NCBI GenBank assembly: GCA_037146775.1
Contig: JBAWWL010000001.1
Span: 69,464 to 133,463, forward strand
DNA length: 64,000 nt
Direction of reading: 5' to 3'
Source of the DNA: Candidatus Omnitrophota bacterium
GTDB lineage: Bacteria; Omnitrophota; Gorgyraeia; Duberdicusellales; 4484-171
Both the position numbers and the translations under genes were made by a program. The notes beneath the pieces are model-generated. The model was given only the letters and a program-made list of their open reading frames with translations. It searched no databases and had not been told where the DNA came from. Position 1 is the first letter of the stretch. Every line of letters begins with the position of its first letter. Of the stretch, positions 9,001 to 63,000 are shown one piece after another.

Positions 9001-12000
9001 CATGCAGGAATTAAGAAACACAGCGCGTCATGTGCAGCACCCGGATTTAGCTTTAATCGAAAGGGTATATAATGAAAAAGAAGAAATAGTTGTTAGCGTT
9101 TCTAGCCCTCTTAAGGGAACGCTATCCCAGTTAGGGGGGGATACCTGGAATATTGTTTCTTCCTCAATAGCGGTGCAAATTAAAAAAATTATTAACGAAA
9201 TAGAAATTAGTAATGATGATTCGCAACAAAAACGAAATGCTGAACAGTTGCAGCAGATTCTTCCTCAGGATACTAACCTAAAGCTGACAACTATCCAGGT
9301 GAGTATATTGATAAATGCCATAAAAAGAGCTACGGAGCATTATGCGCGGTTTAGCCTTGCTGAAGCTTTAGGCCAGGCAATACGTAACAATCCTATTTTA
9401 GTAGAAGAAACAATTATGGTTATCGGCCAATGCCAAGATTCTTCTGAAGTTTACTATTTTTCTCATGCCCTGCAAAAAGCTATGGAAAATAATTTAAGTA
9501 TTAAATTCTCCTTGCCTCAGGCCGGTATCTTGGTTGATGTTATTGTCAAGTTTGCTTATGCGCCTGTGCGTTTATTGCTTGGCCGTTGTTTGTTCCAGGC
9601 GCTGCAAAATGATTTGTTTCTAAAGCTTACAATTACACAAATTAAGTCATTACTTGAGGTCAGCAAGTTACCGGATACGCCGGATGCGCTCGTTTCTGTC
9701 TTAGGTCAAGCTTTCAAAAACGATCCTTCGCTGAAACTTGAGGTACCGCAAGTGCAAATTCTAGTTGATGGGCTTAAAAATGCAAAGCGTGACGATTTAC
9801 GGTGTAGCTTCTCCTTTGCGTTAGGCGTGGCAGCCATCAATCACCATCCTTTAGTTGCAACTATCATTGATGCTATCGATGGCTGCGATGATAATATGGC
9901 ATGTTACCGTTTCGCCAATTCCTTGGACCAGGCTTTAAGCAGCGACCGTTCTGTAGTGCTTGGTGATGATCAGGCACGTGTATTGGTTAAAACGTTAAAA
10001 CGTATATATGCTGCAAGTCATGTGCAGAGAGAAGCTTTACCTGGGCATATCGGAACTTTAGTTCGCTCTACACCGAGGGTTCAGGATGATAATATTGAGT
10101 TTATGTTTGTCACTGTTTTAAGCCGAGCGGTTTTTAATCGGCATGATTTATTTGTATTTTTGAGCGAGGTCATAGAATATCTATTAAGCATAGATATGCA
10201 ATATTTATTAAGACTTGTCGATGCTATTCATGCCGAAATTCTGTCTTTGTGGCTTGTGCCCGATAAAGTTTATGTTTATGTACAACTATTCTTGGCAAAA
10301 ACCGATTTAGTAACTGCAAAAATCCTGCTTTCAAAATATTTCGAGAAGTGTCCGCAAAACAAATTTGCTTCAAACTTAGCCGAGCGCGGTGATTATGACT
10401 GGCCGCTTATTTTAAGCACCATCGAACAGAATCTACTCATGCAGCCATGCTATCGTGATGAATGTGTGGCAGTAGTTACCAGCGCCGAGTACGACCAGCA
10501 GAAGCTCTTGGCGGTGATGCTTAAGCAAAGAGTCTATTGCGCTGATGCCAAACAGCGAGGGGTAGTGCCTTTGCCTGTTCTTTATACCGGAATCACCCTT
10601 TCCAATCTCAGCCAATATCTTGGCTATTATACCTTAGTCTGGGAAGAATTCAGGCAATTCATGGATGTTAACCATGGCTGGTTTCACCAGAATCCCGGCG
10701 CTTTTCTCCAAGATCCGGCAAGAGAAAACCTCAGACCGGCTAAGGCGTCAAGCGCGATAGATGCCAGCACACAAGTTCAGGGATATATCACTACCATAGA
10801 GATCGCTGCTACTAATAGCCAAATAATGACCGCCGCTCATTTTCTGATAGTCTTACTCAAAGAGCGGGAAGCTCTTACGTTAAGCCTTGCGCAAGCTAGA
10901 ATAGTTTTAGCTGCTTTTAGCCGCGTAAGTTATGATACGGAAGCCGGTTACTATCTTGCCTATGTTTTACGTACTGCTCAAGAAAGAAATAGTACTATCG
11001 TCTTTTCGCGTGACGAAGCTAAAATATTTGCTAAAGCCATCGGAGAACATCCGGAAGCCAATACCCGCACTATGCTGTCTTTTGCTTATGGCCGGGCAAT
11101 ATCTCGCGGTCCGCCGGAATTATTAACAGATTTATCCACTGCCCTTGAAGAAATCCAAGATGCCACCGCTATTAGATATTTGGTTTCAGCCTTTGAGGCA
11201 GCGCTAGAAAATAACACTTCCATTATCGTTTCAGGGGAAACAATGGATATTCTAATCAGCGTCAATAAGAGGCTAAAAAGCTCCGATACAACTTTAGCTA
11301 AAGTATTAGGTCAAATAATCATCCGTAACCCCGCATTACGGGAAAAATTGATTAATGCGATTAGGGGAAAGCAGGAGTCAGAGGTACGCTTTAATTTAGC
11401 GTATGCTTTACATAATGCGCTTGACACCAGTATCAGCATTCAACTTCCTGACAATGAAATTAATATTTTGGTCGATATTTTAAGAGGAGATACAAAGACA
11501 GATGAACGTTTATGGTTAATATCTGCCTTAGGCGTGGCTATTGTTAATAATCCTAAGCAGGTTGCTTTATTGATTACCGCTATTACAGATACAAGAGAAA
11601 ACAAAAAACGCTATCATTTAGTTTCTTCCTTGCATGCCGTCCTTAGTAAGGGAAAAGCCATTTCGCTTATATATACGCAAGCCGCTGTTTTATTGGAAAT
11701 TATTAAAGGAATTAATGAAGTAGATATACGTTCACGTTTTGCTGCCACTCTGGCTTTAGCTGCGGCTGACAATCAAGAGCTTGTCGCGCTGCTTAATCAG
11801 GCGCGAGATTATCTTATAAATATAAATGATTCTGATAGCATTATCGAAATCGTTAAGGCGCTTACTTTCAAAGCGCTTACCCATCAAAAAGCTGCCTGGT
11901 TTACGGTTCAGGAATTTTATTTCTATTTAATATTTTTAATGAGAAAGGCGCGCATAAATGAAGTAAAAGATCTTGCTAAACAATATCTTACTGCTTACCC

Positions 12001-15000
12001 CCGTACAGATTTTCATACCCTTGAGGCTACGCAAGAACAATCCGATTGGGTGCTTATTTTAAGTACTATCGATCGCCCTTTGCTCATGCAGTCATGTTAC
12101 CGCGATGAATATGTAGCGGTAGTAGTGAGCACCGAGCACGAAGAGCAGAAATTTTTAGCGGTAATGCTAAAACAAAGAATTTACTGTGATGATGCGGCTA
12201 CCAGAGGGGTGTTACCCGCGCCTATTCTTTATACCGGCATAACTCTCTCAAACCTTAATCAATACCTGAGTCATTACACTTTAATCTGGGAAGAGTTTAA
12301 GAGGTTTATGGATGCTAACTATGTCCGGTTCCACCAGAATACCGGCGATTTTCTTCAAGATCCGGCAAAAGAAAATCTAAGGCCAGTTAAAGCGTCAAGC
12401 GCGATAGAGCTAACTTCAGGGGAATGGGTAAAGAGATTCTTGGAAGCTGAGACAGAAGAAAAAAAGCTTGGCGTAATTCGTGAGCTAGGAATCGCTGCTT
12501 CTCAAGGCAGCCAACCCGCTGCTGAGGCACTTAAGGAAATAATTACTTCTCAAGTCTCTGAAAGTATAAAAAAAGCAGCAATCGAAGCATTGGCAGAGGC
12601 TATTGAGCGTGGCAGTCCGTGCGCCGTCACCGTCATGGAAGAGCTCGCTGATACTTTTAAAATAATAATCACCTCCCAAGCTTCTATGAGCATAAGCGCA
12701 ACAATTAGAGCATTAGGGTTAGCTGCTTCCCGTCGCAGTAAACCTGCCCTTGCCGCCATAGAAGAACTTGCTGATACTTTGGAAGAAATCATCGCCTCTC
12801 ATTCTGAAGGCGCAAAAGAAGCAGCAATCAGGGCATTAGGAACTGCTGTTGAGTGTGGCAGCCAAACTGCTATAACCGCCATAGGAAAGTCTTTTGGTGC
12901 TTTAAAAGGCGTTATTGCATCTCAATCTCATGAGATTTTAAAAGAGATGGCAAAGTCATTGCTTAGAGACTTTTTGCACAGTGATCAAAAATTTTTGGTT
13001 AAGGAGGCTGCCAAGGGTGAGATGGACTGGCCTATTATTCTAAACAATATCTATCAAAGTTTGCTCATACAAGAACAATACCTTGGTGACTATGTAGAGG
13101 TGGTAGTCAGCGCCGACCATGAAGAACAAAACCTTCTGGCAGTGATGCTAAAGCAAAGAATCTATTGTGATGATGCAGTTACCAGGGGAGTGCTGCCTGT
13201 GCCTGTTCTTTATACTGGAATAATTCTCTTAAGCCTCAGTCAATACCTTAGCCATTATACTTTAGCCTGGGGAGAGTTTAGGAAGTTTATGGATGCCAAT
13301 CATGCTTTGTTTCATGCTCAACCCGCCATGTTTAGCCGGGATCCGACAAGAGAAGAGCTGAGGCCAAGAAAAGATAGATCATCGAGTATACTAGAAAATA
13401 TACATAATGGTCCAAGCCCCCTTTTTTATTCTAGTCATAATTTGTTGGGGGCGTCAGTACAAAGTGCCTCCAGTCCAACCATAGATTATTCAAAGCTTTT
13501 AGATCCATCCGGACGCATTACCCCGGGATTATTATTTCAAACTGATGATTCTTATGTAACACACGCGAGAGGATTATTAACTCAAGCTACCGTTGATCCG
13601 CTTGCCTTATGTTGGGCAATTCTTACTTTAACGGTTAAATTTTTCCCTGACGGCTTAAACTGTTTTAATGTTTTGCCGCTTAGGGCAAGTTTATTAGCGG
13701 AGGATTATCATGGGTTATCCCAAGACCATAACTTCTCTTTTATGCAAAGATTATTAAATCAGGGGGTTGAGATAATTAGGGACTATAAGGCTATAACAGG
13801 TTACCAGAGTGAATTCGTTTCCAGGTTTCCGGAAATTATAATAACAGCATCTCAAGAGCATTTAGGTTATGTGCAGGGTAACCTGAATAATTTGCGAGGG
13901 TTACTAAGAATTGCTCCTTTTGTTGAATTAATAGACGGTTTAACATGGAATGCCGGACGGAATAATTTCGGAACACTTTTCCGGGATCAACTGTGCGTCG
14001 CTATGAGTAATGCTTCTGACTACGCAGGTAATCTTGAATTATTCGCCAAACTGACAGCAGTTCTAAAACAATCTAGCTCACCACTCGAAGAATACACAAC
14101 CAAATCCCTGCCTTGCCGGCAGGCAGGCCACCTCCGGGGTGGGCTTTGGTTGAAAAGCAAAATTCACACCAGTTCGCCACTTGCTCAATATCCGGATTCG
14201 GAGACGATGTATCAAGATATAAAAACATTTATTGAGCGCATCGATCCATATTTACATTATCAATTAGAACAGTCTTTATATGAGCGTCCGGGAAGGCTTG
14301 ATGGTTGGCCAATAGTTTGTATTACCAGTTCTTATGTCCTTGGTAACATTTTAGCCAGGTATTTTGGGGATAAATATGGCTTAGTTTTTGGTGGTTACGC
14401 GCCAAACAGAATTGATTTTATAATGACCGAAGCGGAATTTGTGGAGGTCGATGGTTATGTAAGTTCCGGTGATCAGGGAGCGTTGATGTTGGTTTTGGGC
14501 GGCCGCGACTATGCCTTAATTAATGTGATGTACGGTTTAATCGATCCAGATTTTTGCTGGCGCACGCTGGTTGATAGAATTGATGATTACCCGAGTAAAG
14601 AAGAATTACTCAATAGGCGCAAATTCATCTGGATTGACGAAGAAACAAGGAGAGAGTCGGGCGGCGATTCTCACGGAGTTGCCAGATGGGCCTGGGAGGG
14701 CGCCTGGACGATTGCTGATAAAATTGACTGGGAGAATGTTCCCCAGACAGAACCCATAAAAACTATCAGTGGTTTATTTAGGCCATTTTGCGGCCCTTCC
14801 AGTTCGCATACTGCCGGAGCTAATAGAATTGCTACTTCCGCAAGAGAAGTTTTCTTTGCGCATCAGCAAGATTTAGGCGAATTAACCGAAATTAATGTTA
14901 CGGTTTACGATTCATATGCGACCACCGGTACAGGCCACCAGACGGCAGAAGCTTTAATTGCCGGTTTGCTGGGTATGCGTATGGATAATCCTATGATGTG

Positions 15001-18000
15001 GAACTCTTTTTCCGAGGCACACATGAACAGAATTATTGAAAAAACAGGATGTATTAGCCAGTGGCATGGCGCGATAAATATTGGTAACAGCCAGGATGTT
15101 TTGGTTGTACTGGATAGTGATGTTAAAACCGTAACGAAACATCCCAATACCGCCATTATTACGTTTAAGGGTGCAAAGGCAGTGCTTGTGTGTGTCGGGG
15201 AATCCCTGGGTGCTGCCGAAATCGCTATTACCGCCAAAATAACAGATGTTACTAACTCAAAAACAGATGAAATTGCTGTTCAACCCGATCAAGCCGCGTA
15301 CGTTATCCGTGGGCACCATGATTTCTTAACCGCAACTGGTTTACTCAAACTTGCAGCAAGAAAGAAATTAACCATGGTCGATTTTCTTATTGCTGGCGAA
15401 GGTAATGTTTTAGGTATATCTCGTGGTGAGCTTTATGATAATTTAAGGCATATTTGGACAATAATGTGCCAAAGTATTGAACGGGGAATACACTCATCAG
15501 AGGCTACGCTCGCGCATTATGCCGGCGATGTTGCCGTTAAGATGCATGCTTATGCCACACAGAAGAGCGCCTTGCCCTATGATTGGTACTTAAGAGCGGC
15601 TGTGTATGCTATGGCTATAGCTGAAGAAAATGCCCGCGGACATTTGATTGTGGGTGCACCTACTGGCGGTTCTTGCGGGATTATTCCGGCAGTTCTATAT
15701 AGTTATGTAGAAATTATGCAACAACATGGACCGATTGAAGAAGATAAAATTCTTAATGCACTTATCCTTGCCCAGGCTATTGGTAGAATTATCCAGCATA
15801 ATTATACTTTAGCTGGATCGGTTGGGGGATGCCAGGCTGAAATTGGCAGTGCTACTGCCATGGCTGCCGCAGCCCTTATGTACTTAGAGGGCGGAACAGA
15901 TGAACAAATACTTAATGCTGCAACTTATGGTCTTTTAACTTGGTTAGGTACAACTTGCGAGCCGGTGGAAGGTTTTGTAGAAGTTCCTTGTATTGATCGT
16001 AACGGCTTGGGTGCTGCATTGGCTATCGCTAGCGTATTAACAATATTTGCCAAAGAAGAGGTGCCTGTTTTTAATCTTGCAGTTAGCCACATGCAAACCG
16101 CGGGGGCCAGTATACCGGCAATTTTTAAGGAAAATATTGCCGGAGCCTTGGGAACATTTACCGACAAAACTCTCGCTAAAACAATTGAGCGTTTACGTAA
16201 AGGTTTATCTCTTGCTTATCGTACCTATGTTCAATTTAAGACACACTTAAGTCTTTCTGCCTGGCGGTTCTCGGGTGGCGTCAAAAAGAGCGCATTAGAA
16301 AGTGTTTTAGAATCAAGGCCATATTATAACGGATTTTTCCCAAGGGCTCTCTATAACTTAAAAGTTTTAGCAACCGGCAGGTTTGGAAGTTCTTTGAATG
16401 ATCCTATCGCCGACGCAGCATATCAAGCAGTTGCAGAAATTATGGATATGCCGGAGATTGATTTTGCGGTCATCACGCCTTTTAGGAAAGCGCTATTTGA
16501 GCATATTGGTTATCCTCAGCTGAATATCCGCGGTCAATTAGCGGTATCAGCTGGTTTTAGTGCGGGAGTGCTTACTCATCTTTTGGGAGCTTCAAATATC
16601 GACTTGGTCCAGAATGCATGCGCTATCTCCACTGCTAATATGCTTGGAGCATTTTATCCGACGGAAGTTCCGCAAGCACCGTTACGCGCCGCAGCGCTAA
16701 TGAGTAGCTATCTTTCGGCAATAGGGATTTTGAGCGGAGTAAAACAACGGATAACCTTCCCTAAAGTGCTTGGGTCTCTTGAGCGAGTTAACAATTATCC
16801 AGCTTGTCAGGCTTGCCAACTTGCTTGTGGCCGTCATGGTAATGAGAAGGCCAGTTCAGCTTTAGATGATAGGAGTGGTCAGAAAGTAGCGGCTCAAAAA
16901 ATCCCAGCATACGATTACCAAGAAGTTTTGCGTATAATTGATTATCTTGATAGCACGAGATTAGAAAGTAATCTAAGGCAAAAGCTTGAGAGTACTGATA
17001 CCGAACCAGTATGGATAGCAGAGGATATTTTGAGGGACGCTGCAAGATTTGGGCGCATAGCTTCACGGGTTAAAGCTCTTTATAAACGAACGTATGGTAA
17101 GCTGCCTGATTTTAGAATAGCGGTCGATCCTTCGGGTGAAGGCATGTATGGCGCATACGAAGAGGATGTTATCGCCAGCTTTTTTGACCATGTTGGCGTA
17201 GCCATCGAAGATGATATGCTTGAGGTGGGAAGCGGCGATGGTAGTATTTCAGATTTTATGGCGCACAAATTTGGTATTAGGGCTACCGGTATTGAGGTGT
17301 GGCCCCCATACTGTGAATATGCTAATTTTCTTAGAGATGAACTTGTAAGAAGAAAATTTAATAAAGCAGGTACGGTCAGGTTTCTAAATAATAATTTTGC
17401 GGACGAAAGCGTTGATTTTTCACAATACTCATTAATATATTATGCGGCACTTGGCGCGAGAAGGAAAAGTGAGCTTGCTGCTAAATTAATTGGTGTGAAA
17501 GTAAAAAGTAAGACACTAATCCGCGGTTCCTGCGATGAGTTAGTGGAAGGTATTTTAGCATCCCATCCCGATTTTGCATTAAGAAAACTTGAGATAGAGC
17601 ATAACGGAGAACTTACCGGCATCAAGGCTAGGCTTTATACCAGAGTGGCAGTGACAAGTTACGAGCCTACTCTAAATGCCAAAGTTTCTTCTTCTTTATC
17701 AGTTCTTACTTCAGGGGTTGAGGCTTTTGTCCGTTGGCATAACTATGGTTTGCGTGATCCGCGTTTAGCCATGGAGCCGCTTGAGATTATCTTTGAGGAA
17801 CTAGAGTACGAAGGGCTTTATTTTCTCCGTGACGACCATGCTTCGAAGGTGACCATTCCCGTCAATAGTTATACACGCTTCATTATGGCTGAACCACAAA
17901 GGTTTCAGTCTTTACTTGATGATATCCTTTTTGACTGGCATATGCGTCAGACCCGCAAAATTTTAATTAACCAGCTTGGTTTTGAGAGGGACGAAATTTT

Positions 18001-21000
18001 ACGCGATTATATAATGTATAGCGAAAGTGAGCTAGCGCATATTCATTGTGCATTAGAATTAACAAGATTTTTAATGAGCGGAGTAAAAGCGATTGATCTT
18101 GGTTCGGGCTTAGGAGGGAGCGTGGGGTGGATGTTTAATTGTGGCGCTGACGTCCAGGGTGTGGATATTTTAGAGGAAAATAACCGCTTAGCAGTGCAGA
18201 ATGATCAGAGATTGGAAGGGAGGTTATATACTGGACACATTGTCCGGCTTCCGCAATTTGCCGAAGGAGTTTTTGATATCGCCCTATGTCTTGATATTAT
18301 TTATCTTATGCCTTTACGTTTGATATTCCTTGCTGTGAAAGAGGCTGGGCGAATTCTTAAACCAGGCGGAAAGCTCGCTATTCATTCTCGTTATTCATGT
18401 GGCATGACTGAACAAACACATTTAGTTTCTTTTAAACAATGGGAAGACATTTCTCAAAGAGCCGGCCTTGAGCCCGAAGGAAATGATCTAAAATATATTG
18501 GTAATGACGGATTTATTATCTTTGGCCGTAAGAGACTTGATGTGTCTTTATCGCCAAGTGATTGCCGTCCATTTTCTCAATGTTCAAGCCCCACAGTTTC
18601 TGTTTCCGAAACACTGAGCGTCATTATTTTGCAAGATATGTTTAATACAACAGCAACAACGGATTTTCGCCAAGCTCATCATCCGGATTTAGCAGAAATC
18701 GAAGCCATGTATGATGCGAAAGCAGGCGTGTTAGGCGCTTATGCCAGTTCCTCGGTTGATTTCATAGAGCCCAAACCTCTTGGGCGGTTATTGTTTCATT
18801 CGGTCATGAATAGCTCTATTTCATTTTCTGCTTCAAGCGCTATATCTGCGTTACAGCGTTCATTTAGAGGGCAGACGCCGGTTTTATGGCTTGAGCTAGG
18901 CATGTCTCAAGGAAAGTATTTTGCCAAGCTTGGTGAGATTAGCGAATTAGCAATGGTTTTTAGCAAGGTAGCTAATAAAAAAGGAAAATACTCCGAAGAA
19001 GGGAAATATCTTGTCGAAGTTTTAGACGATGCCCTGAAACATACAAAAGTAAAAGGCAATCCTGTTTGGTTAAAGGCAACTAAGAGCTTTTCTGATATGT
19101 TAAAGGGTGCCTTTGCCGCGCCTGTTGAGGGGAAATATCCCCTTTATCCTTGTACCAATCTTGCCCATCAGGCTTTGATCGAAATGGTGCGGCAGTGGCC
19201 GAAACGCGAACGGCACACGCACGTGACCATGTCTATTTCACCATTAATGGTAATAGGTGAACTTAAAGAATTGCAATCGTTACCAGGTTATCGAACAGCT
19301 CTTTTAAATAAGTTTAAGCAATCAATTTCTAATCAGCCAAAGAAGGAAGACGCGCATAGAACATTTTATGAATTGCTGCAGAAGTCTAGTGATTGGCGTG
19401 ATTTGCCGGAAGATGAAGTATGGGAATTCATGAAAGACACGGGTATTCGTGATGATTATTGGATGGATTTACTTAAGCAAGATGATTACATAAAGGTATT
19501 AATAAGGCTTATCGTTGGGGTTGTCAGACAGAATTTTACTGACGGTATTACTGATCTGGAGTTACGTTTTAATCCCTTCAAGCCTTTTGGCGATAAAACC
19601 GTTGGCTGGAAAGAAGTAAAGACTTACCTAGAAAAATTAACCGAAGCAATTAAAACTGTCGAAGGAGAGGCTGACGCGGCTTTTGGACGCAGTCACCGGG
19701 TTTCCTACATGTTTTCTTTTAATAGAAGAGGCATGAGAAGAATTGATATCGCAAAAAAAGGTAAACACTTCAAAGAGGTTAGAAAAGAATGGAAAAGAAA
19801 ATTCTTTGCCCTACGTGTTTTAAGAAGAAAATGTGATCCTGAATTAAAAAATCGTTTAAACGGTATTGATATTTCTGGGGGTGAGCCTTTTGATGGTTTA
19901 GCTAAAGTTACGGTTGAGGATATTACGCGGGATTACGCTTTAATTTGGTTAGCCAACCAATTAAAAAAATTAAAAGAACAGGGTTATGAGATAAGCATGC
20001 ATTTGGGCGATTTTACTGCTCGAAGGCCTCCGGATGATCTTGATGGCCATATTGTATTTATCAGGGCTCATCTTGAAGCTTTAGAAGGTATTGTTGACAG
20101 AATAGGCCATGGTAGGATGCTTACTCCCGGAATGGTCCCTGTATGGGGTAAAGATAGTAAATGTTCATGGAAGAAGGTGTCTGAAACCTTAAGCCTTTTA
20201 GACGATTTCAGACAGAAGTATCCCCAGGTTATTATTGAAACAACACAAGAAACAGATACACAGGATTTAGTAATTTTACGGGAAAATTATCCCAACTACT
20301 GGTGGTATGAAAATGATTATAAAATGGAGATAGTATATGGTTCGGATGGTCTTTATACTAATCCGCCTACTACTTTGTCGCAGTGGCTTGTGCGATTGAT
20401 GTTGGCATCGCCTACACCCATGTATCCTTCGCAAGGAAGAATTAATGGCATTACCGTTAAGCAAATGCACACTGCGGTATCCAGTCCTGTATTGCCAAGA
20501 GAAAGATTGGGCCATGCCTTGCCGGGTATAGTCAACAAAGTTTCGATAATTAATGGAATTACCTCTCGCGGACCGCCGGAGCAATTTGAAAGTGTAACCA
20601 GCTCGCCCGCTACCGCTAAAGTAGATGTCAATGAAGTTGTGCGTGATGCGCTTTCTGTCGGCCAAAAAATCCAATTAGCATTTACGGAAAACCAATTGCG
20701 GGTTGACGTGCAATATTATAGAGGCCGCTTGCCGAAACTTTCTATAGACCGCAACAAATTACAATCTGCCATTTCAGAGGTATTCTGGAACGCAATAGAT
20801 CATTCCCCTCGAGGAGGAACAATAACCGTAAGAGTATCTTTGGAAGGTCGTAATCCCGCCAAAAGGAACGTAATAGTTTTTATTTTTAATCAAGGCGTGG
20901 GTGTAGACATAGCGACAATAGTGCGGTCAGCTCTTGGTTTAGGAGTGATCTCAGTCGATATGGTCAGCCAGCTTTCTATGCAAGATAAGCTAAATTTGGT

Positions 21001-51000: not shown

Positions 51001-54000
51001 TATGCAAAAATTTGTTTTAAGTCGAAACGGTGAGCCTACCGGCTTAGGCGTTCCTCTGCGGGTGTATACCATGCAAGATGCTTCCTCGCCGCTTAGCGAC
51101 GCAGAAGATAGCGGTAGCGCTGATTTAATGCGCGATCTGCCTTTAACCTTAGCGCAGTGGTGGGAGATTATTGACAAAGAACGCCAGACAGGCAGACTTT
51201 TTGCCGGAATGGATTTAGATAATTTAGTCAGTGCTTTTGAGGAAAGTCTCAAAACACGTCCCAACCGTGGTGTCTACGCTATGGTTACAGCTATACATAC
51301 GCGTTTTGCCCGTATTGATAAGGCTTCAGAAATATTAAAGCAAGGGCTAGCCTTTGAACCAGAAAGCCAAATGCTCGTTGCTCTTGACCGGGAAGTATAT
51401 GGAATTGCAAGAATGATGCGCGATAGATTAAGTCCAAGGACTGATGAGGATAAATTTTTACACCGGGTGGTTGTCCCTGATGGAGAGGGCGACTGTTTTG
51501 CGGATACTTTGGGTTTTGACGGCCGCTGGCAGGTTTATGATTTTTCAAAAAGCCATGCATACATTGATACTCCCGCAGTGCTACAAGTGCTAAAAGCTTT
51601 GCAATGGAATATTCAAAATTACAAATATGTGGATGTAGTTATGCCGGATTTTTCACCCGAAAGAGTAGAATTAGCATATCTTGATTTTGGGCAAGTTTAT
51701 ATTGCCGAGGAGAGTATGTTACCCGGCGCTATTATAGATGAAAAAGATATTTTCTTTTTTGTTCAACCCGAGGAAAAGGCTTCGCGCAGCAAGGTAGTTG
51801 TTTGTATGACCCCTGCGTTCTTAGTCATTGAAAGAAGAGAGCAGATGCGTAGAATCAATAATGTTTTCGCCGGCGGCACCTCTTGTTTTGTGGCATTAGA
51901 AGAAAAGTATGAAATGAGATTTTCTGATGACGCAGAAGTCTCCAGAGAAACTCCCAGAGTGCTTTGCGTTTCTTTAAGTGAAGCTACTGCTCACGGCATA
52001 GATGTTTTAGAGGACTCGTTACTACGTGCTGGGATAAAAGCAGCAGCCAGAGAGATGCGCTGTCTTGATTTGCTCGATAACTATATGGATGAATTCGCAC
52101 ATTTAGAAGAATTAGACGGAATAAGCCCTAATGTATTTTGTATTTCCGTAGTTAATATGCGTACAGAATGGGCGGCACTAACCATTAGAAAAATTAGAGA
52201 ATTTTTTCCCGAAGCACTAGTTATTATAGGCGGTCCGTCTGCCCAGTATCCGGAACAACTTGCGGCATTAGTGGTTGATTTTGATTTCTTGGTGCGAGGA
52301 GATGGAAATGAAATACTTCCGGAGTTATTACGGCTTGTGGGGGGATACTCAAGACAAAGAATATTACCTCAGGCCGTACGGGAAAGGATTATGCAGCTTG
52401 CCGGAGGAATTATCTATCGCTCGCCTTTTATGCTGGTAAACCAGCTTTCACATACTAACCGTGCAACAGTCGTGCATTTACCAAAGCCTCGGCGCCGTAA
52501 TAAATACCATTATTTATATTTACGTTATGGTTGTCCGCATAATTGTTCTTTTTGTAATGACCCCATGGGCCATAAGATGCGTTTTGCCAGTATAAGAGAA
52601 ACAGTGGAGTGGTTTTTATACCGCTTATGTCTTGAGCCCGGAGTTGGCCAGGATATATTTGCTTTGGAGGAACGTCTCGAGGCTTCTGCTTGCGCGAATC
52701 AACCGCTTCAGTTTACTCAATTAGGCGGAAAAATAAGAATTGATTTTTATGATGATGATTTTGCCGCTGACGCCGCCTACGTAGAGGCATTTTGCGATGA
52801 AGCCATTAGGTTGGGTTTAGGGAATTATTTTGAATTCGCTATTGTCGGCACCAATGTGATTGATTTTTTTGAGCGCGGAAATCTACGTACCCGTCTTATC
52901 GATAAAATGTGGGATGCTGGTTTTCGCATGGTGCAATTAGGGACTGATGGCCTTTCTAATGCTGCCATCCGGCATAATCGCAAAGGTTACACCCTTGATC
53001 ATCACGTTATCCCCCTTAACGCATATCTACGCGAAAAGGGTTTTGTGGTTTGGCATAATCTGATTATCTTTCCTAATTACCTTACTTATGAAGAGGCAGT
53101 GGAATGTCTGATGCTTTATGTTTTATTGCCATTGGTTTTCCCACCAGAATTTAATATCGGTATCCAGGCAGCGCTCGGAACTCATTCCAATAATTTAGAC
53201 CTGATGCTTAACCGCCATAAGTATGATTGGGGAGAATTGGGTGCTCGAGTGGATTGTGCGATTAAAGTGTGCGGCGATTACAAGGTTCCCGTAGGTTTTC
53301 CCCATTACGCTTTGCCGGTTTCGCAAGAGTTGGCTTATACCGAAAGCGAAGTGGCAAGATTGGCAAAATTGCTTGATAAAAAAAGCATGCCGCAGATATT
53401 AGCAGAAGATGTTTCTGAAGCAACAGTAACGCGAGTTATAGGAAAATGGCACGATCTTGATCGAGCGCAATATCCCCAGATGTATGCTTTATCTGAGGCG
53501 ATTATTGATCTTGGCTGTAGCGGTATATCGTTTGAAGAAACGTTAATGCGGATTAAAAGTGAAATGATTTGTTCTGGGATCCATACTTTTACCGATTATC
53601 TTAGGCATTTACGCGGTGAAACTGAGGAATTTGCCCGAGTTGGCAGGAGTTTTGTATTGCGTTTTGAAAATGTTCGGCAATCTTTACTACAAGGTTGCAC
53701 TGAAGGTATGGAGCAGGAATTGGCAGAGATTATAGCCCAGCGGCCGGATGTTACTGATAGCTATTATTTTATGCTTGAATTATTAATCAAAGAGGGCAGG
53801 TTTCTTGAGGCTATGATGTATTTACATCGCCTGCGTCTGCAGAAATATTTTGCTCCTATGTACATGAAACATATGAATAACGCACTTAGCTATGTAAGAC
53901 TTAATCCGGCAAGATTTGATCACCCCTTATTATTCGAAGATTTACGTTTTCAGAGCCATGCCTTATTTCAGTGGATGATGTTGTTTGCCGGTATTGTTGA

Positions 54001-57000
54001 AGGGCTCGGTAATAAGAACGTGTGGCATCTGAAATTTCACTATGAAAAAACAGCCAGCCTTAATAAATTATACGATATTCTTCCTACTTTTAGCGTAGAA
54101 GACAGTAAAAAACTTTTTGATGATTTTGGCGGCGGTATCACACAGTCTTTACGCGATGGCAAAACCGTTTGGATGTTCGGCATACCTTTTAGTTTTGACG
54201 GGGGAACTCTAGGTGTGAACATCAATGATGCCAGGATTGATTTTGACAGAGCCCAGCCTTTTGAAATTGCATCTAGTTCAATCGCCGATTCATACCCGCC
54301 AATGCAAGGTTTTAGAGAAATCCACAGAAGACGCACACCTATCTCAGGCAAGGAATATGATAGTCAGCTGTATTTTGATAGTGAAAAAAGAGCAGTCTTG
54401 TGGAAGGTGGATAATGCAGTGTTTGTGAGGAAATCTTACCAATCTCATCCAAAAGTAAATTTTTATCTTGCCGAGCTAAATACCCCGGTATCTGTGGTTA
54501 TGGAACGTATATTTATACGTGATCAGGTCAACGGCGATGAAACGCTTATTAATATGTGGGAGCCGCTATTTGGACACTATCTTTTTACTCCGCCCGAAAC
54601 CACCGAAGGCGCTATTTTTGCCATACAGGATTTAAGAGAAATAATTAAGGATAGAGTTTTTATCGATTTTGGAGCTGAGGCAGGAATCTTAAGTTTTTTA
54701 GCTATAGCATGTGGTGCCAGTAAAGTTCTTTCTTTGGAAAGGGAGTGGAAGCTTAGAGATGAAATCAGGCATAACAGGAGGATTAATAATTTATATGATT
54801 GGCAAGTCCAGGATTGTCGCGGCTTTGAGAGTGTGTGGCGGGACGAAGTCATGGGGGCGGTTGTGGTTATTAACATGGACGGTTATTTCTCTCCGGAAGC
54901 GTTACTTGAAGTATTAGATAAAGGAATTCCTGCGGCCATAATATTATCAGGCGGGCATTATGCCAGAGAAAGATTAGATCCGGTATTAGAAATATTAAAT
55001 CAATACGGATTTTCGAACCGGATTATAACAATAGAACCATTAATTGGGATAAATCCATTAGAGAGCAAGCCTTTTGCTACAATCATTGCAACCCGCAACA
55101 TGCGGTCTGTTTCGGTCATTAGCTCGTCTGTTAGTTCCCCGCAAACACCTAGCTCGATACCCATGGCTAATTACTCACGACTAGGCAAGGCTAGCTCGTC
55201 CATAGATAATTATGATGAACCGTATTTAGAGCTTCACGTTTTAGAGGAATTGAGTCTTTTTAGGGAAAAGCTTGAATATGGGATGAGCTTTTTTAAGGCA
55301 ATTCTTTATCATGGCACAGGATCGGAATTTTCAGAATGGGACATTAACTTAACGAGTTCGCTCTCTAGCCGTTTAGAGCCAGCAGGTATTCGTTTGAGTT
55401 TTGCAAGAGATTATGCAGCTGGGTTTGCTATAGGAGAAGAGGCGAGAATTATTAAGTGCCGCGTCAGTTTAAAAAATCCGTGGTATGTTTCACGAACGCG
55501 TTTTTTTGCATACTTTCTATTTATTGGACAAGCGCTAGAGGAGCTTGCTTTGAGGCGGGGAGTTACTTCAGAAGATAAATTGTCGATTCCCGAATGCCGT
55601 AGCTACGTTAGGCAACGCATGCTAGAGCAAGGATATGACGGGGTTGTGCGTTGTGATGTCTCGTGTATAGAGGTAATCGCCTTTCATCCGCAAGCACAAA
55701 TTGAAGTTATAGAAGTATTTTGCGCTAGCTCAGCGATAAGTTTATTACAAGACACAAAAGAAAAAATTATAAAGGCGCTTGAAACTAAAAAAATGCCGGT
55801 TGATATAGCTAAAGAGCGAGCAATACCCGCGGCATTCTCTGCTGTGGATAGTGTTTTTGATATTCATACTCGGCCACAAGCATATGAGTTAGTTCTGGGG
55901 ATGGCTCTTGGTTTGATAGCTAAAGAGATTCCTGTCTGTAGTACTTTAGAGTATGGGGTGCCTTTGGCGATTCGTGATTCTTGTGCTTGTTTGTATGTAT
56001 TTAGAGAAAATATTTTTTGGCTTACCCGGCTTGCTGAAGATTTGTATCTTTCGTCGCAAGGCCCCATAGATCCTTACCAAACCCTTATTTTGGCGGGAGC
56101 ACTTTATGGCGAAGTTAGAAGAATCAAGACGTTTGAGGGTCTTCTTGAACGGGCCAGGCAAGATGTTAATAGAGCCAGGGTTGGTAAATATCCTAATGAA
56201 GAAGGGGTTATTGAAGTTAATATCGGCACGCAGGAAATTAGTGTTAACGAAGTTGATACAAAAGGAGAAAAATTTGATTTCAAAAATCCCGTAGAAGTGA
56301 GCCAATTTAAAAGAGAACATGGACAAGCTATTGATACAGCTTTAGGCGAAAATTGGAGAGACGTTCTTTTGGCTCAAATAAATCGTGATATTGGTGGAAT
56401 TATCTTGGGCCATGAAAGTGTTTATGTAACTTTTGCTCATTGCTGTGGTGGTACTGTGCAGGGAAGAATTATTGCCAAAGTCAAGATTCCGGCTTATAGC
56501 TTAAGAAAAGCTTTAGATTCAGTTAGCGATGGCCATTCTGCAAGCTCTCCGTTATTAATAATAGAAAATTTTACCTACTGGAGTAATGATTTTGACGGTC
56601 GTTACAGCGAGGATAGGGCGTATCATTTTGCTATTGGTGGAAAACAGGTATGTATTTCTGATCTTGAGTATGTAAAGATAACTATTCTTATTAAGCCTAC
56701 TAAGGTGATATACCTTGCAGTAGACCACAATACAAGTTGGTTCCATACTGTTTTGGCGTATAAAGAGGGCATGATCGGGGGTAATGAATTATTTGCACAC
56801 ATAGATCATAAGCAACATCCCGATGACCGCGCAATAGAGGCTAATCCTCCAGGTCGGTATGAGGATATTGGTTGGCACATTCAGCATTTAGCGCAAGGAG
56901 GTGCCAGTATTACCGGATATGTTACAGCTTTGCATAAAACATTTCCTGATATGATATTTTTGTTTCTTAAGCAATCAGATGGTGGTTCGGATGGCTGGGG

Positions 57001-60000
57001 AGGTGTTAGCTTTGATTGGGGTGGCTCAATTTTTAATTTGCCATTAGAGTATTTAAATAAAATTAAGATTGCTAGTATTGACTTGGATATGTTTACTAGT
57101 GATGTTTCTTCTAAAGAATTACAAAAGAAACTCATAGAAGTGCTCAGCTATGTCAGGGTAGGAATGGTTATTATTTCTCCAGCCGGTCCACAGGAAGCCG
57201 GTCAGCAACAGGCAATATTAATGAAAGAAATAATTGAAGATTTACTTGATAAGTTGATTCCTGGATGGAGATTACAAGAATTGGGGAGTAATGCTTTCGA
57301 TCCAACGAAGAGTTCTAGTGCTGTTCTTAACGGTCATCATGAGTCCAGGCTTTATTACCCATCTATAACTATTTGGGCTGTTCATCCAACTTTACGACAG
57401 TGCAGAGAGGTGATTAAGTGGGTCGCAAAAATGCCATGGCGCAAAACCGCTATAGTAGTGATTATTCCTTCAGATTGGGAAATGGCCTTAAAGTTTCTCA
57501 GAGATCGTGTTATCGCCAATCAACACTATTTTTATATGTTTATGTGTGAGCATTATATAGACGACGAAGGATGGTTTAATGAACAAGATATGTATAAAAT
57601 CAATGAATTGCGGCTAAAACTATCCGGGCGAGGATTAATAGCTGACGATCATTATCTATACGGTCAAAATACGCCTAACTGTATGAATATTATAGCTACA
57701 TGTCTGGCTAGAGGACTTATTTATAAGGGGCAATGTTGCAGTCCGCGTTTTAGCCGCAAATATACTCCATGCAAAAATTATTGTAGCTCAAATAAACTTT
57801 TTGTTATTGAAGATTTTACAATTACTGGAAGAAAGGGAATTGGCGTTCTTAATGACGAACAGCGTCGCGATTATACTCTTTTGAGTTTACATATTTCTGA
57901 GATTGAGAGGAGATATTTTGATACCGGCAATGGCGCTACCAGTTCTCCAGCTATGCACAGAAAAATGAAAGAAAAAGAACAACAAGAAAGAAAATCTTGG
58001 TTGTGGCAGGTTATTACAGGTCAGTTTACCTTTCCGTGGCTGGTGGGAGCTGACCAGCCTGCCGCAGCCGTCTCGTATGGTTACAGAGTAATGTCTTTTG
58101 TGATGACAAAATCATATCTTTTTAGTAGCCTTGCTAATAAAGCCCCTCCGTCTGTGAGCGTTTCGTTGGTCAGTTCTCCGCAAAAACCTAACTCAATACT
58201 CGCGACTCACTACTCACGACTAGATAAAGCCAGCTCACCCAATGCAAAGATCTCAGCTACGGCAGCCAGAATGGCAGAAATTTTTAACAATACTATTACC
58301 CATCGCAGCGATGTATGCCATGAAGATCTATTATTGCGCAACCGGCGAGTCCGGGAACTAAAAATATTTGGAGATGCTCTTGTTGGGCAATCGGGAAAGT
58401 TTGATGATCTTGATATCCTGGGAATAAAACTTGAAGAATTAAAGGCTGGTAAGTTTCTAGAAATAGGCTCGGGTAAAAAATGTCTAATCGGTCGCTTTTT
58501 AATCGACCAATTAGAATTTGATTCCGCTAATGTTTATGCGATAGATCCTATGATGGAAGAACCCGGCAAAGATTTTGATAATAATAGCGGGCGCTTTGTA
58601 AAAGGTATCATAGAAGAAATTCCGGAATTATTCCGGGAAATCAGCTTTAATATGATATATGCAGCATATGTGTTTTCCATCAGAAGAGGTTCTATAAAGT
58701 CCGGTTTACGCAAGATTGACCCTGGAAAAGCAGCCCGAAATGTTGATGTATTTTTGGCGCCCGGCGGAACACTGATGGTGGCAGGTAAAGCTATGCCGTC
58801 TGACATGGCTTGTGAATTGGCAAGTAGATTAGCCCAGCCTTATATCTGTCAGCGACCGGGAAATCAACATAGCCTATATTATTACACAAAGCTTCAGACT
58901 TTTTCTAGCTCGCCGGGTTCCCCCAGCACCAGCAATAGCTCCAATTATCGTAAGACATTAGGCCTGTTTCGGAGAAAAGATGACATCGAAGCATGGAAAG
59001 CGCTTAATCCTGTTTCTCCTATTGATGAGAATAAGTTGCCACGCCTATTCCCTAAAGGGGTTACGTATGGGTCGCAATGGAATTATTTAAGAGGTGAAAA
59101 GTATGAAATGAAAGGATATGTGCATACTGGTTTAGATTTATTAGTTCCAGCTTCTACCCAAGTAAGAGCAATTGCCGAGGGTACGGTATTTATAGGAAGA
59201 TATAAACACGAAAAAGGTGAATATGTTGTTGTTGATCATGGAAAGGGAATGCTGTCCTTGTATATGCATGTCATTCCTCGAGTAAATACCGGACAGAAAT
59301 TGGCGAAAGGAGATGTTATAGGTGAGGTAATGCATTCATCAATACATCCATCCCATCTTCACCTCGAATTATTAGCAAATATGGAAATATCCACAGAGGC
59401 ATTTCCGCGTGAAGGAGAAGATACGTTGGAAGATAAGGAAATAAACAGGCGGTGGACTTTTATTAAATACAGTCGAGAAACGAACAGCTTGGATCCGTTA
59501 TTGGTTCTTCCACAGATAGCCGAAGGAGCGGTAATAGAAGATGATGATAGCATTTTGATGGGTGCCGATAAAGGTGCAGGCTACGCCAGCTCGCCGTCTC
59601 AATCAGTCTGTAGTCAACGGTCTACAGTCAACGGTCGAGAAAAAATGCAAAATTTTGGTGATAGGCTATTGATTATACCTGCCTGCCGGCCAGACACGGG
59701 CTATGGGCGAAATCACGCCAGTTCATCTATGTTGGACAGCAGCGTCGGCCTTTCTGTGAAATATGTGAAATTTTCTTCGCCAGGTATTCCTTTGGAGTGT
59801 GACTATAATTGGCTCCAGCTGCAAAAAGGTATTCTTCTTGAATCTTATGCAGGTAATTTGTCGCCGGAAGCCAGCCGTCTCTTGCAAGAGCCGCAGATAG
59901 CAATTTGGAATGATACGTTTACTCCGCGCATCTACCTTGAATTCGCATGGAAAACCTACCCCCCTCAGAATAATCCATGGGTTAGTATCTTATACAAAGT

Positions 60001-63000
60001 CATCGAAATCTCGGTACGCAAGCACTTAGAGATTAAGGCGGGAACTAAAGAGGATGAATTTTTCAGGCAATTTTGTTATATTTCTGAAAAAGAAACAGAC
60101 AGTTTGGTTAAACCTACACAGTTACAGATTATAGGATTACGAACCGATACATTCAGGGTGCCGGATTTCTGGAAAGCTCAGCTCATTTGGCAAACCTGGT
60201 TATTTTGTAATATGTGTATGGGCCATGTCCAGGGTTTTATTCCAAGGGTTTTCCCTGACACATCTATCGGGCCGGCAGGCATTGATGATGCTTTACATTT
60301 AATTTATCTCATTGGTTTGGGGGGGATGGGTATTCCTGCCAGCCTAAATATCAAAGCTGCTGATATTAAACGTTATTTTTCCTCGCTTGGCTTTGGGTAT
60401 AGCCTGATTACGCAGTGTGGATGCTCCGAGCAATCATTACTCGCAGAAGAAAGAATTCAAGAACTGGTAGAGCATTATAAGGTCACGTTAGCGTTAAAAA
60501 CGCGTACAGATTACAATATCTATAAAGCCCGGTGCGATGCCGTAGATAAATTTAATTTAGCTGATGTTGAGTCGTGGCGTCGAGAGCGAGTAGAGCTGGA
60601 ATTAAGCGCTTTAGAGCAGCAAGGATTTAAAGCCGCAGCCGAGGTGCGCAGGCGCTTAGGGTTTGCCTCTGCAAGTTCTCCATCTCTGCCCGCCAGCTCG
60701 CCGGTGACTTCTAAAGAGTGCACCATATTAGTGCAAACTGATTTCTGGAAAGAGATTTCTGATATGTATGCATGGCCAAGAAAACCTAACGTTAAAAAGA
60801 AAGATAAATTGCTTGCGATAGTAGAGGGCCAATTTATTGATTGTTTACTACTGGAGAGAGTTCAGACAATATTGAAACAATTGGAACTCTTTAAATATTT
60901 TAATTATAGATATGAGGGGTTACAAATGAACTATTTCAGTAGTTTACTTGACCACATTATTGTTAACAGTGTTGATGCAATTTTTGAGAGAATTGACCGG
61001 GGTAAATCCGGGCATCCGCGTTATAATCCCCAAGAGTCTATAGCCCAGGCCCAGGCTCAGATACTTTTCTCTTTGTGTAAATACGATGGGGATGGCCCTC
61101 TGTATGAAGCGGTTTTAACTGATAATGGGGTAGGCATATCACTAGATCTTATGCGAACTTGGTCCACATGGACAAGAGATATTTTATTTCAATATACTGA
61201 AAATACCGTTGGAAGAGCATACCTGCCAATCCCCTCATCTTTTTCAACAAAGAATAGGGAAATCTCGGGTTTATATATTGGTCAACGCGGAGGTGGAATG
61301 GTGGAGTTTTTTCTTGATGCTGAAATAGGAAAGTTTCAAGTGACTATTGATTCCTGCCAGCCAGAGCAACGGGGTTACAGGTTTATACAGAGCACACAAG
61401 GTAGAAGAAACGTTCTTAACGCCTCCTGTGCGGCAATAGGCACCAAGGTTACTTTACGCGTTAAGTGTGCCAGTCGAAAAAGGTTTCAAGAAGTTAGTTC
61501 ATGTACTACTAGCCCTCCGGATGAGAATAAAAGGGGCGAAGCGATTAGTATGCCAAAAAATGTAGAAGCAGAAATTTTTATGGTTGATGTTTTGTTCGCG
61601 ACCAGCGAAGTCATTAGTTCATCAATTTGCGGTTTGCATGATTCTGGCCCGAATGATCCGAACGCGAGCAGTGCCGTAGGTCAGGGGCTTGAGTATGAGG
61701 TTAATACGCGGTTAAGTGAACCCGCTGATTTTAAAAAAATAAACGGTACTATTGCCGTAATTGGCGCATCAGGCTTTCTTGGTAGCTATATATATCTAAA
61801 ACTTTTATGGCTCGGCGCTCGCGTTATTGGGACTTTTTGTCACACCAAGATCGCGCCGCTTTTGGCGAATAATATGTGTTATCTTGATGTAACCGATGCA
61901 CGCCAGGTAGAAAAATTCATGCAAGATCACCGTCCGGCAGTAGTTATATATGCAGCAGGAGCTGTTGCATCAAAAGAAGAAGGACGAAATACGGAAAATA
62001 TAGAAGCGTTAAATATTGCCGCCATTGATAATATTGCCAGTTACTTTGGAAGCCATTTTATCTATTTTTCCAACAGCCAGGTTTATAGTGGAAAGAATCC
62101 ACCTTATACCGTTAATGATCCTGTTGATCCGATCAACCAGCGCGGAAAAATAAAGGCTGCCGGAGAGGCAATGTTGTTTGGTCGTCACAGAGATAGCTTT
62201 GTACGTTCAAGCGTAGTACGCGCCGGATTATTTTACGGCTATAGTATGTTTTGGCGAAGAATGGATGTTGTAGGCGATATCGTGCACAGGCTTAAACGCG
62301 GCGAGGCAACGATTGAAGCCGATAACTATCAGATCAGATATCCTGTTTTGATTGATGATGTTGTGGCGCATACGCTTGATATAGTAAAACACAGCGCTTA
62401 TGGCATTAGCCATATTAACGGTTTAGAGCCAGTCACAAGGTATGAATTGGCAAAAATGGTTGCTGGTATGTATGGAGACCTTACCGCTACTACTAGTGAA
62501 ACACTTATTATTCCTAAGCAAAATATTTTCCGCAATGAACCATTGGATAGTCGGCTAGTTAATACGTGTGGTATCGAGCTTACCCCACTGGAGGTCGGTT
62601 TACGCAAGGTGGTTTCTTACTATATTTGGTCGCAATCGGACCATCCGACTAGCTTGCTCCAAAAACCTTTAGGTGCCGGTCAAGCCAGCTCGCCGCAGGC
62701 CAGCGGCTTCGCCACTAGGCGAGCGAAGTCTCGCCTGTCGCAAAGTAATGAGGCGGACTCGCCAGGTGACCCGCGCAAACTTTCTTTTTATTCTAAGCTG
62801 CCAGATGGTTTTCAAAGAAATCGCAACAAGTATGGAAGGGCTTTATCCGGCGAGTGCGAACCGTGGGCGCGGTGGGCATTTAGAAGATTGAAAAATTATC
62901 TTAAAGAAGAGAAGGGGTTGATTAAGGAAGTGTATTTGATGTTTTTATGCGATGCGAAATGTCACACATCAATTGGGCATGCTTGGGTTGAATTTGTTAC

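Follow-up and report, generated by a model that had tools for sequence, protein, structure and literature searches.

Giant bacterial genes of 30 to 150 thousand codons are a recent discovery, and two questions that they raise bear on the locus shown above: how do such genes grow, and do they yield one polypeptide or many? The DNA studied here is a stretch of 64,000 nucleotides (nt), hereafter the window, in which a sequence-only reading had seen a gene built by repeated internal duplication of large modules. Six-frame translation reveals 21,333 codons without a single stop in one frame of the + strand (nt 2-64000), with 827–1901 stops in the other five frames, and since this frame is open on either side, the window lies inside a gene that is larger still. 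In our reading, to which we give a probability of about 0.75, it comes from the interior of a giant multi-enzyme gene of the Omnitrophota kind, of which about 19% corresponds to old duplications of linker-bounded modules and the rest to unrelated modules that were added. GC content at the three codon positions (GC1/GC2/GC3 of about 0.51/0.39/0.35) is even along the whole window, while 31 of its 32 2-kb segments have a positive GC skew (mean about +0.12), which is consistent with a giant gene lying on the leading strand.

When the frame was compared with itself (BLASTP, phmmer and family-specific hidden Markov models, HMMs), eight families of repeated modules were recovered (A, Y, TM for transmembrane, R, M, F, G and D), each in two or three copies. 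All are significant (E-values from 1e-7 to 1e-72) over alignments spanning 100–490 amino acids (aa) of complex sequence, with identities between copies of 28–63% at the aa level and 43–73% at the nt level; nucleotide-level repeats are detectable for Y, D and R. Every family listed in the sequence-only reading is found where that reading had located it, with the off-diagonal similarity visible in the self-comparison. Its figure of 50–80% identity holds for Y, TM and D (aa), while R, the methyltransferase pair (M), F and G are more diverged (30–42%), and its three-copy “element B”, given without coordinates, is most likely D (47231-47544, 57941-58257 and, partially, 32564-32668). Family profiles searched against the whole frame yielded no further copies. 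Apart from the methyltransferase pair, all repeated modules are devoid of Pfam matches (“Pfam-dark”), even at E ≤ 1. The frame and the module copies other than D are the following:

2..64000, + strand: single open reading frame (ORF), open at both ends (six-frame stops, uniform codon-position GC, Pfam mosaic)
9287..10315, + strand: block A copy 1, 343 aa, Pfam-dark and internally repetitive, making up tandem unit 1 with Y1 (BLASTP, phmmer, HMM)
10316..10768, + strand: module Y1, the “125-aa module” of the sequence-only reading, about 147 aa, ending in the degenerate junction KASSAI (self-comparison, HMM)
11006..11962, + strand: block A copy 2, making up tandem unit 2 with Y2 (BLASTP, phmmer, HMM)
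11963..12415, + strand: module Y2, 63% aa identity to Y1 (self-comparison, HMM)
12938..13384, + strand: module Y3, 55–56% identity to Y1 and Y2 (self-comparison)
16880..17737, + strand: methyltransferase M1, class I, dependent on S-adenosylmethionine (SAM), DOT1-like match (self-comparison, Pfam, HMM)
21716..22366, + strand: module F1, the “RSIWP unit” (self-comparison, HMM)
22970..23605, + strand: module F2, 30–34% aa identity to F1, near-tandem (self-comparison, HMM)
25679..26437, + strand: module TM1, six predicted helices, beginning at ASSP and ending at SSP (self-comparison, hydropathy, HMM)
35027..35773, + strand: module TM2, 51% aa identity to TM1, beginning at ASSA and ending at a canonical AGCTCGCCG SSP (self-comparison, hydropathy, HMM)
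45224..45580, + strand: module G1 (self-comparison, HMM)
46310..47230, + strand: module R1, all-helical, beginning exactly at SSP and ending at SSP (self-comparison, HMM)
50306..51160, + strand: methyltransferase M2, 31–36% aa identity to M1 (self-comparison, HMM)
55754..56092, + strand: module G2, 34% aa identity to G1 (self-comparison, HMM)
59774..60694, + strand: module R2, 42% aa identity to R1, beginning exactly at SSP (self-comparison, HMM)

Two of these similarities had not been listed in the sequence-only reading, i.e., the G pair and the larger tandem block of which Y1 and Y2 are the ends (9287-10768 vs. 11006-12415). The starts of the three Y modules are spaced by 1647 and 975 nt, and they share a 270-nt core that is 71–76% identical at the nucleotide level; short HEAT-like repeats lie upstream of Y3 (12467-12841). 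The two TM copies are 9348 nt apart and their alignment displays six hydrophobic segments, while the distance between R1 and R2 reaches 13464 nt. Moreover, the module order is rearranged between the two regions that share G, R and D (G1-R1-D1 vs. G2-D2-(M23 peptidase)-R2). An AlphaFold2 model of R (predicted local distance difference test, pLDDT, of 79; predicted template modelling score, pTM, of 0.82) features 12 helices and has no significant structural neighbour in the PDB; the model obtained for Y was unreliable.

Sequence comparison supports the repeats as true paralogs, duplicated and shuffled, because the internal copies are each other's nearest known relatives, because A+Y and F are arranged in tandem, which is the signature of local duplication, and because the dispersed families are rearranged. 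Searches outside the window returned very little. The TM and methyltransferase modules had no match among 5.8 billion proteins, and the Y alignment no relative in either 185,579 species-representative genomes or the JGI metagenome collection. The Pfam-dark G-R-D stretch, searched exhaustively with HMMER, found three matches in 1.84 billion representative sequences, and P0001 and P0003, the ones whose origin was checked, both come from metagenome-assembled genomes (MAGs) of Candidatus Omnitrophota. P0001, a fragment, is the best outside match of R, at 32–33% identity vs. 42% between R1 and R2, while P0003 matches another part of the query, near module G. The known relatives of R are P0001, L003 (also Candidatus Omnitrophota) and L002 (labelled Planctomycetales). 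We infer that the duplications took place within this gene rather than between sister giants.

The graded divergence of the copies had also been proposed as an internal molecular clock for the growth of the gene, a claim that fails. Nonsynonymous (dN) and synonymous (dS) divergence were computed by the Nei-Gojobori method, with unrelated pairs as controls. The proportion of synonymous differences is 0.60–0.85 for the Y, TM, R, M, F and G pairs and 0.60–0.79 for the controls, which means that these pairs are saturated; only D1–D2 is not (dS 0.48, dN 0.29). Across families, dN varies from 0.26 to 0.86, with dN/dS far under 1 for Y and TM. Furthermore, the two parts of one and the same collinear tandem block, A+Y, have diverged to very different extents, A being 28% identical with a dN of 0.86 and Y 63% identical with a dN of 0.26, so that divergence follows selective constraint rather than age. 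Judging from the alignments, Y3 would be the earliest split of its family, followed by the separation of Y1 and Y2, and no clock is usable across families.

Alternatively, the paralogs might have arrived separately, through recombination or fusion with modules from other giant or ordinary genes of the same genome. Several long genes are frequent in published Omnitrophota genomes, copies lie as much as 33 kb apart with R and D in swapped order, the saturation of synonymous sites makes the events old, and D1–D2 is younger than the neighbouring R1–R2 pair, so that modules have had separate histories. Yet A+Y and F are tandem or near-tandem, composition is even along the window, and none of the 1.8–5.8 billion proteins searched resembles any copy more closely than its internal partner does. 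We thus consider separate arrival unlikely, if worth keeping in mind for the dispersed families.

What, then, makes up the remainder of the frame? Pfam scans, run on overlapping 1000-aa pieces, gave about 18 domain matches from about 15 families, none of them dominant: HEAT, serine dehydratase beta and alpha, DOT1-like methyltransferase, type-11 methyltransferase, HATPase_c, three weak radical-SAM matches, metallophosphatase, protein kinase, P-loop (guanylate-kinase-like), HAD, B12-binding plus radical SAM, peptidase M23, RmlD/epimerase and a second B12-binding domain; long stretches of the frame have no Pfam match at all. The three radical-SAM, two B12 and extra methyltransferase domains were considered as further duplicates and dropped, as they show no significant similarity to one another; in this frame, a shared Pfam family is thus no sign that domains were duplicated. 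Since most of the frame is unique sequence, growth would have occurred mainly via the addition of different modules. Hence, while paralogy and rearranged order bear out the idea of growth by duplication and shuffling of cassettes, “built by” duplication is too strong a wording for a gene in which repeats cover just 3974 of 21,333 codons (18.6% of the frame).

The enzyme domains are extremely diverged, as exemplified by the serine-dehydratase module (beta + alpha, 14699-16201), whose nearest relatives are stand-alone enzymes of 450–550 aa at only 30–37% identity; when it was used as bait for giant genes, no long protein was found in the 120 best matches. Twenty-two membrane-helix candidates were counted (19-aa stretches with a Kyte-Doolittle hydropathy of 1.8 or more), those of the two six-helix modules among them. 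Two other kinds of large gene were considered and set aside. The sole sign of a phage or conjugative polyvalent protein is one ART-PolyVal match under the curated cut-off (25.1 vs. 31.2 bits), with neither a mobile-element context nor other hallmark domains, and for a non-ribosomal peptide synthetase or polyketide synthase megasynthase, Pfam has no condensation/adenylation/carrier or ketosynthase/acyltransferase/acyl carrier protein match anywhere in the frame.

The content of the window is instead that of the giant genes reported from Omnitrophota. West-Roberts et al. 2023 (bioRxiv 10.1101/2023.11.21.568195) described “Archaeovorin”-type giants that combine methyltransferases, peptidases, SAM enzymes, membrane helices and diverged domains, while Nielsen & Lui 2026 (bioRxiv 10.64898/2026.06.07.730766) defined a class of “multi-enzyme metabolic cluster”, found at least one Pfam domain to be repeated in 65% of long proteins and ascribed this to old duplication followed by divergence; Seymour et al. 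noted the poor conservation of giant ORFs. Three features of this class are seen here (an ORF of more than 10,000 aa, many Pfam families and numerous predicted membrane helices), and the domain set agrees with Modules 1 and 2 of Nielsen & Lui (PF08241, PF02518, PF13419, radical SAM, HEAT). As in these giants, a single frame of tens of kb carries diverged enzyme domains amid membrane helices and Pfam-dark sequence; there, domain repeats within one polypeptide are the rule and sequences are mostly singletons. The gene thus fits an essentially orphan new member of a known giant-gene class, in which internal repeats are usual. From the relatives of module R and the overall architecture, we infer an Omnitrophota origin.

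Several points weigh against this reading. The assignment to Omnitrophota is based on one module at 23–33% identity together with architecture, and one of the relatives (L002) is labelled Planctomycetales. Unlike the published giants, the 64 kb seen contain no SecA-DEAD, C39 (or S8) peptidase, glycosyltransferase, glycosyl hydrolase or NUDIX domain by Pfam, with both gene ends lying outside the window and domains in such proteins being highly diverged. The membrane helices are predicted from hydropathy alone. Finally, no close relative turned up in any collection searched, which leaves no ortholog to date the duplications or to place them within the gene.

L002 and L003 each contain an R-like module among mixed domains and have no stop over their full lengths (20.8 and 11.8 kb, respectively), the longer one being L002 (CAZJFL010000001.1, 188701-209513, “uncultured Planctomycetales” MAG). 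Either giant multi-enzyme genes exist outside Omnitrophota too, or the taxonomic label is imprecise.

A short junction peptide, SSP, occurs 51 times vs. 4.5 expected, while the permutations SPS (7) and PSS (6) stay at background; the motif is therefore ordered and not a by-product of Ser/Pro-rich linkers. Its context reads [A/S/T/V]-S-S-P-[L], with Ser-rich flanks, and degenerate forms (ASSA, ASSS) end the Y modules and open TM2. The conserved junction sequences pointed out in the sequence-only reading (CCAGCTCGCCG/SSP) are confirmed by 13 matches with at most one mismatch vs. 0.58 expected, all on the + strand, and for 14 of the 28 module boundaries the nearest SSP is no more than 12 aa away vs. 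1.6 expected; R begins exactly at SSP in both copies. A single site out of 51 falls inside a Pfam domain or module core vs. 12.7 expected (p about 8e-6), a figure that is partly circular for the modules, since module cores (not Pfam envelopes) were hand-trimmed to exclude SSP boundaries. The coincidence of boundaries and SSP is no proof that the junctions drive recombination, because it is also expected if duplications breaking inside a domain do not survive.

At the DNA level, the canonical junction codons AGCTCGCCG are preferred (GCC-AGC-TCG-CCG, for A-S-S-P). AGC-TCG-CCG encodes 11 of the 51 SSP sites vs. 0.36 expected (p 7.5e-14), and this at non-paralogous junctions, while junctions copied along with their modules have drifted synonymously; 29 sites are no more than 2 nt away from AGC-TCG-CCG vs. 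9 expected. Both serine codon families (AGY and TCN) are used, which indicates that the SSP peptide is itself under selection. A Chi-like strand-biased DNA motif is unlikely, given that no copy falls outside the coding frame and that other codons preserve the peptide as well. Junctions as hidden gene boundaries with their own promoters or terminators were considered and dropped, for between 44 and 62 kb such sites are at chance level (41 promoter-like sites vs. 41.1 expected, 14 terminator-like sites vs. 16.3). Just one complete ORF in the window reaches 200 aa (5014-5691, - strand, 225 aa, beginning with GTG); it is antisense to the giant frame and probably arose by chance in a stop-poor frame.

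Could these junctions be cleavage sites, as in a viral polyprotein, the giant product being cut at [A/S/T/V]-SSP-[L] into about 60 proteins and modules having been duplicated as cleavage-delimited units? The motif is ordered, preceded by a small residue (-1) and followed by Leu (+4); it sits between domains and not within them, separating segments with a median of 282 aa; and some SSP pairs tightly bracket whole enzymes (in aa: kinase -12/+43, HATPase -49/+14, M23 -71/+70). Moreover, West-Roberts et al. (10.1101/2023.11.21.568195) proposed the proteolytic processing of giant proteins, with cleavage points stated to be unknown, and P0001 repeats a motif of its own after its R module. Viral polyproteins indeed share with the window a short ordered motif that recurs between protein-sized units of one translation product. 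Unlike theirs, the SSP motif sits in Ser-rich linkers, where a flexible-linker role fits equally well and might be purely structural; Pfam reveals no processing protease in the window, only the M23 peptidoglycan peptidase; and the two other giant ORF pieces, L002 and L003, have no enriched junction tripeptide and just one or two internal repeats. Processing at SSP is thus improbable as the main explanation, to about the same degree as separate arrival.

The motif of P0001 (= L001, MAG GCA_028717585.1, JAQUNN010000248.1), an 853-aa giant-ORF fragment, is the peptide SLDNGGEV, found directly after the R-like module (aa ~305-315) and again at the C-terminal end. It may represent a lineage-specific double-glycine junction, an interesting prospect since giant proteins of Omnitrophota have been reported to contain C39 peptidase domains. 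In our window, consecutive kinase, P-loop (guanylate-kinase-like) and HAD phosphatase domains occupy 38260-40850, and the Ser-Pro junctions beside this trio raise the possibility that SSP might serve as a phosphorylation site.

The last repeat family, D, differs from the others in being conserved as DNA. Two full copies (about 317 nt), one 5' fragment and six 3' fragments were recognised, all in frame and on the + strand; a junction at 45 kb with an array of its own is listed with them:

47231..47544, + strand: D1, full length, reading SSP, hairpin, SSS, heptamer array, SSP (nt repeat, nhmmer, folding)
47289..47359, + strand: hairpin of D1, 27 bp, -46 kcal/mol, most stable local structure of the window
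57941..58257, + strand: D2, full length, 73% nt identity to D1 (nt repeat, dS, folding)
32564..32668, + strand: D3, 5' hairpin part alone (nhmmer E 5e-12)
55124..55205, + strand: D 3' fragment, a long junction element (SSP, heptamer-array peptide, SSS; nhmmer E 6e-14 vs. protein E 6e-6)
30150..30266, + strand: D 3' fragment with array (ACTCACG) x 4.4 (nt match)
27583..27655, + strand: D 3' fragment between two SSP sites (nt match)
36712..36782, + strand: D 3' fragment with array (ACTCAAT) x 4.4 (nt match)
38134..38195, + strand: D 3' fragment, weak match (nt match)
2505..2565, + strand: D 3' fragment, weak match, ending in a canonical AGCTCGCCG (nt match)
45098..45143, + strand: canonical SSP junction, then an array of another heptamer, (CAGAGGT) x 4.6

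As the E-values of the fragment at 55124..55205 illustrate, D fragments score much better as DNA than as protein. Heptamer arrays lie at 27606-27633, 30216-30246, 36726-36756 and 58191-58221, and the CAGAGGT unit at 45112-45143. The D array is translated as NSRLTTYDSRLNK, bracketed by SSP codons and using codons that are rare in this gene (SRL, for instance, by TCA-CGA-CTA); heptamers gained or lost other than in threes would break the reading frame, and the protein would end early, at a module boundary. Programmed frameshifting to termination at alternative-frame stops in the junction element was considered and dropped, since off-frame stops occur every 34–44 nt gene-wide. Between the long junction elements at 36.7 and 38.1 kb, at least eight predicted membrane helices are packed into a Pfam-dark stretch (36880-37640, aa 12294-12546) that is unrelated to the duplicated six-helix TM module.

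The hairpin of D1 has homologues in D2 (57999-58069) and D3 (32595-32661), with folding energies of -46, -41 and -35 kcal/mol, respectively; no local fold elsewhere in the 64 kb is as stable as those of D1 and D2, whose GC-corrected z-scores are -5.4 and -4.6. Across the three copies, 96% of the cells are paired vs. 32–57% with slid partners, there are six compensatory pairs, and the loop encodes the invariant peptide TFPWL. It is the local hairpin alone that stands out, as whole-element RNA folding is unexceptional (z of -0.9 for D1 and -0.8 for D2). A covariance model detected no further hairpin copies in the window or in related loci, no Rfam family matched in the window, and 241 million metagenome records contained no match to the core pattern of the junction element.

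Such features invite an explanation at the nucleic-acid level, in which the junction DNA and D would be either a selfish palindromic repeat, persisting just where in-frame read-through is possible, as with the Rickettsia palindromic elements, or a recombination joint for the in-frame shuffling of modules. It would account for the enrichment of AGC-TCG-CCG at and around SSP sites, including non-paralogous ones, for the conservation of D fragments as DNA, for a 7-nt period that could not arise at the protein level, for the rare codons, for the hairpin with its compensatory pairs and for a dS of 0.48 in D1–D2 next to a saturated R pair. However, the element amounts to just three hairpin and nine D-related copies in one gene and on one strand, the observed covariation is attained by 8 of 500 shuffles, matches are lacking in the related loci and metagenome records just mentioned, and the use of AGY and TCN codons at SSP argues for selection on the peptide as well. 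Neither terminal inverted repeats nor target-site duplications were recognised at the D copies; the flanking SSP codons had been considered as such duplications, and this was ruled out because the left copies consistently read AGT-TCN and the right ones AGC-TCN, a difference which means that they belong to the element. Overall, we regard this explanation as doubtful, on a par with the two preceding ones. A dedicated junction system, in which the GCC-AGC-TCG-CCG joint and the 317-nt D would be sites of in-frame module insertion, duplication or exchange, while SSP may also mark processing, seems somewhat less probable still. That the repeats are an assembly or low-complexity artefact is very improbable: giant repetitive genes are prone to misassembly, but the copies are 28–63% identical and not near-identical, their alignments extend over 100–490 aa of complex sequence with E-values down to 1e-72, and the frame stays open through all junctions with even composition.

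According to the reading that we prefer, i.e., a giant multi-enzyme gene enlarged in part by old duplications, whole linker-bounded modules would have been copied long ago within this gene or lineage, some in tandem (A+Y, F), others ending up dispersed and rearranged (TM, R, D, M, G), and the copies would since have been kept by purifying selection of very different strengths, while the remainder of the gene would have grown through the addition of unrelated modules. The resulting polypeptide may be pictured as about 60 protein-sized segments, consisting of very diverged enzymes, membrane-helix bundles and Pfam-dark domains, connected by Ser-rich linkers with the ordered core [A/S/T/V]-S-S-P-[L]. 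Tandem-repeat giant adhesins (the large ORFs of Chlorobium chlorochromatii, the TSP3/dockerin-type giants of Omnitrophota) are likewise long ORFs partly grown by internal duplication, but one family dominates them in tens of copies, while here no family exceeds three copies. For D, the nearest precedent is found in the Rickettsia palindromic elements and intragenic MITEs (miniature transposable elements with inverted repeats; PMC10969869), which are about 100–300 nt long, multi-copy, in-frame and conserved as DNA, with a stable hairpin. In contrast, D is confined to one gene, to inter-module junctions and to one strand, and it carries a heptanucleotide array, with no recognised terminal inverted repeats or target duplications.

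With respect to the growth of giant genes, the window thus provides a well-resolved case in which the linker-bounded module is the unit of duplication and accounts for about one fifth of the length; because the copies date far back and are constrained to very unequal degrees, their divergence is unusable as a clock. The duplication part of the sequence-only reading is a correct observation of a known phenomenon, and it is the junction motif and D that are most worth pursuing. The SSP motif, its canonical codons and D, which are not mentioned in the texts of West-Roberts et al., Nielsen & Lui or Seymour et al. and were not seen in the two other giant ORF pieces, are candidate processing sites, linkers, translational pause sites, selfish in-frame repeats or recombination joints. 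If true, the junction system would give prokaryotes a counterpart of exon shuffling at phase-compatible joints, and the “cleavage or assembly points” that giant proteins still lack would thereby be supplied.

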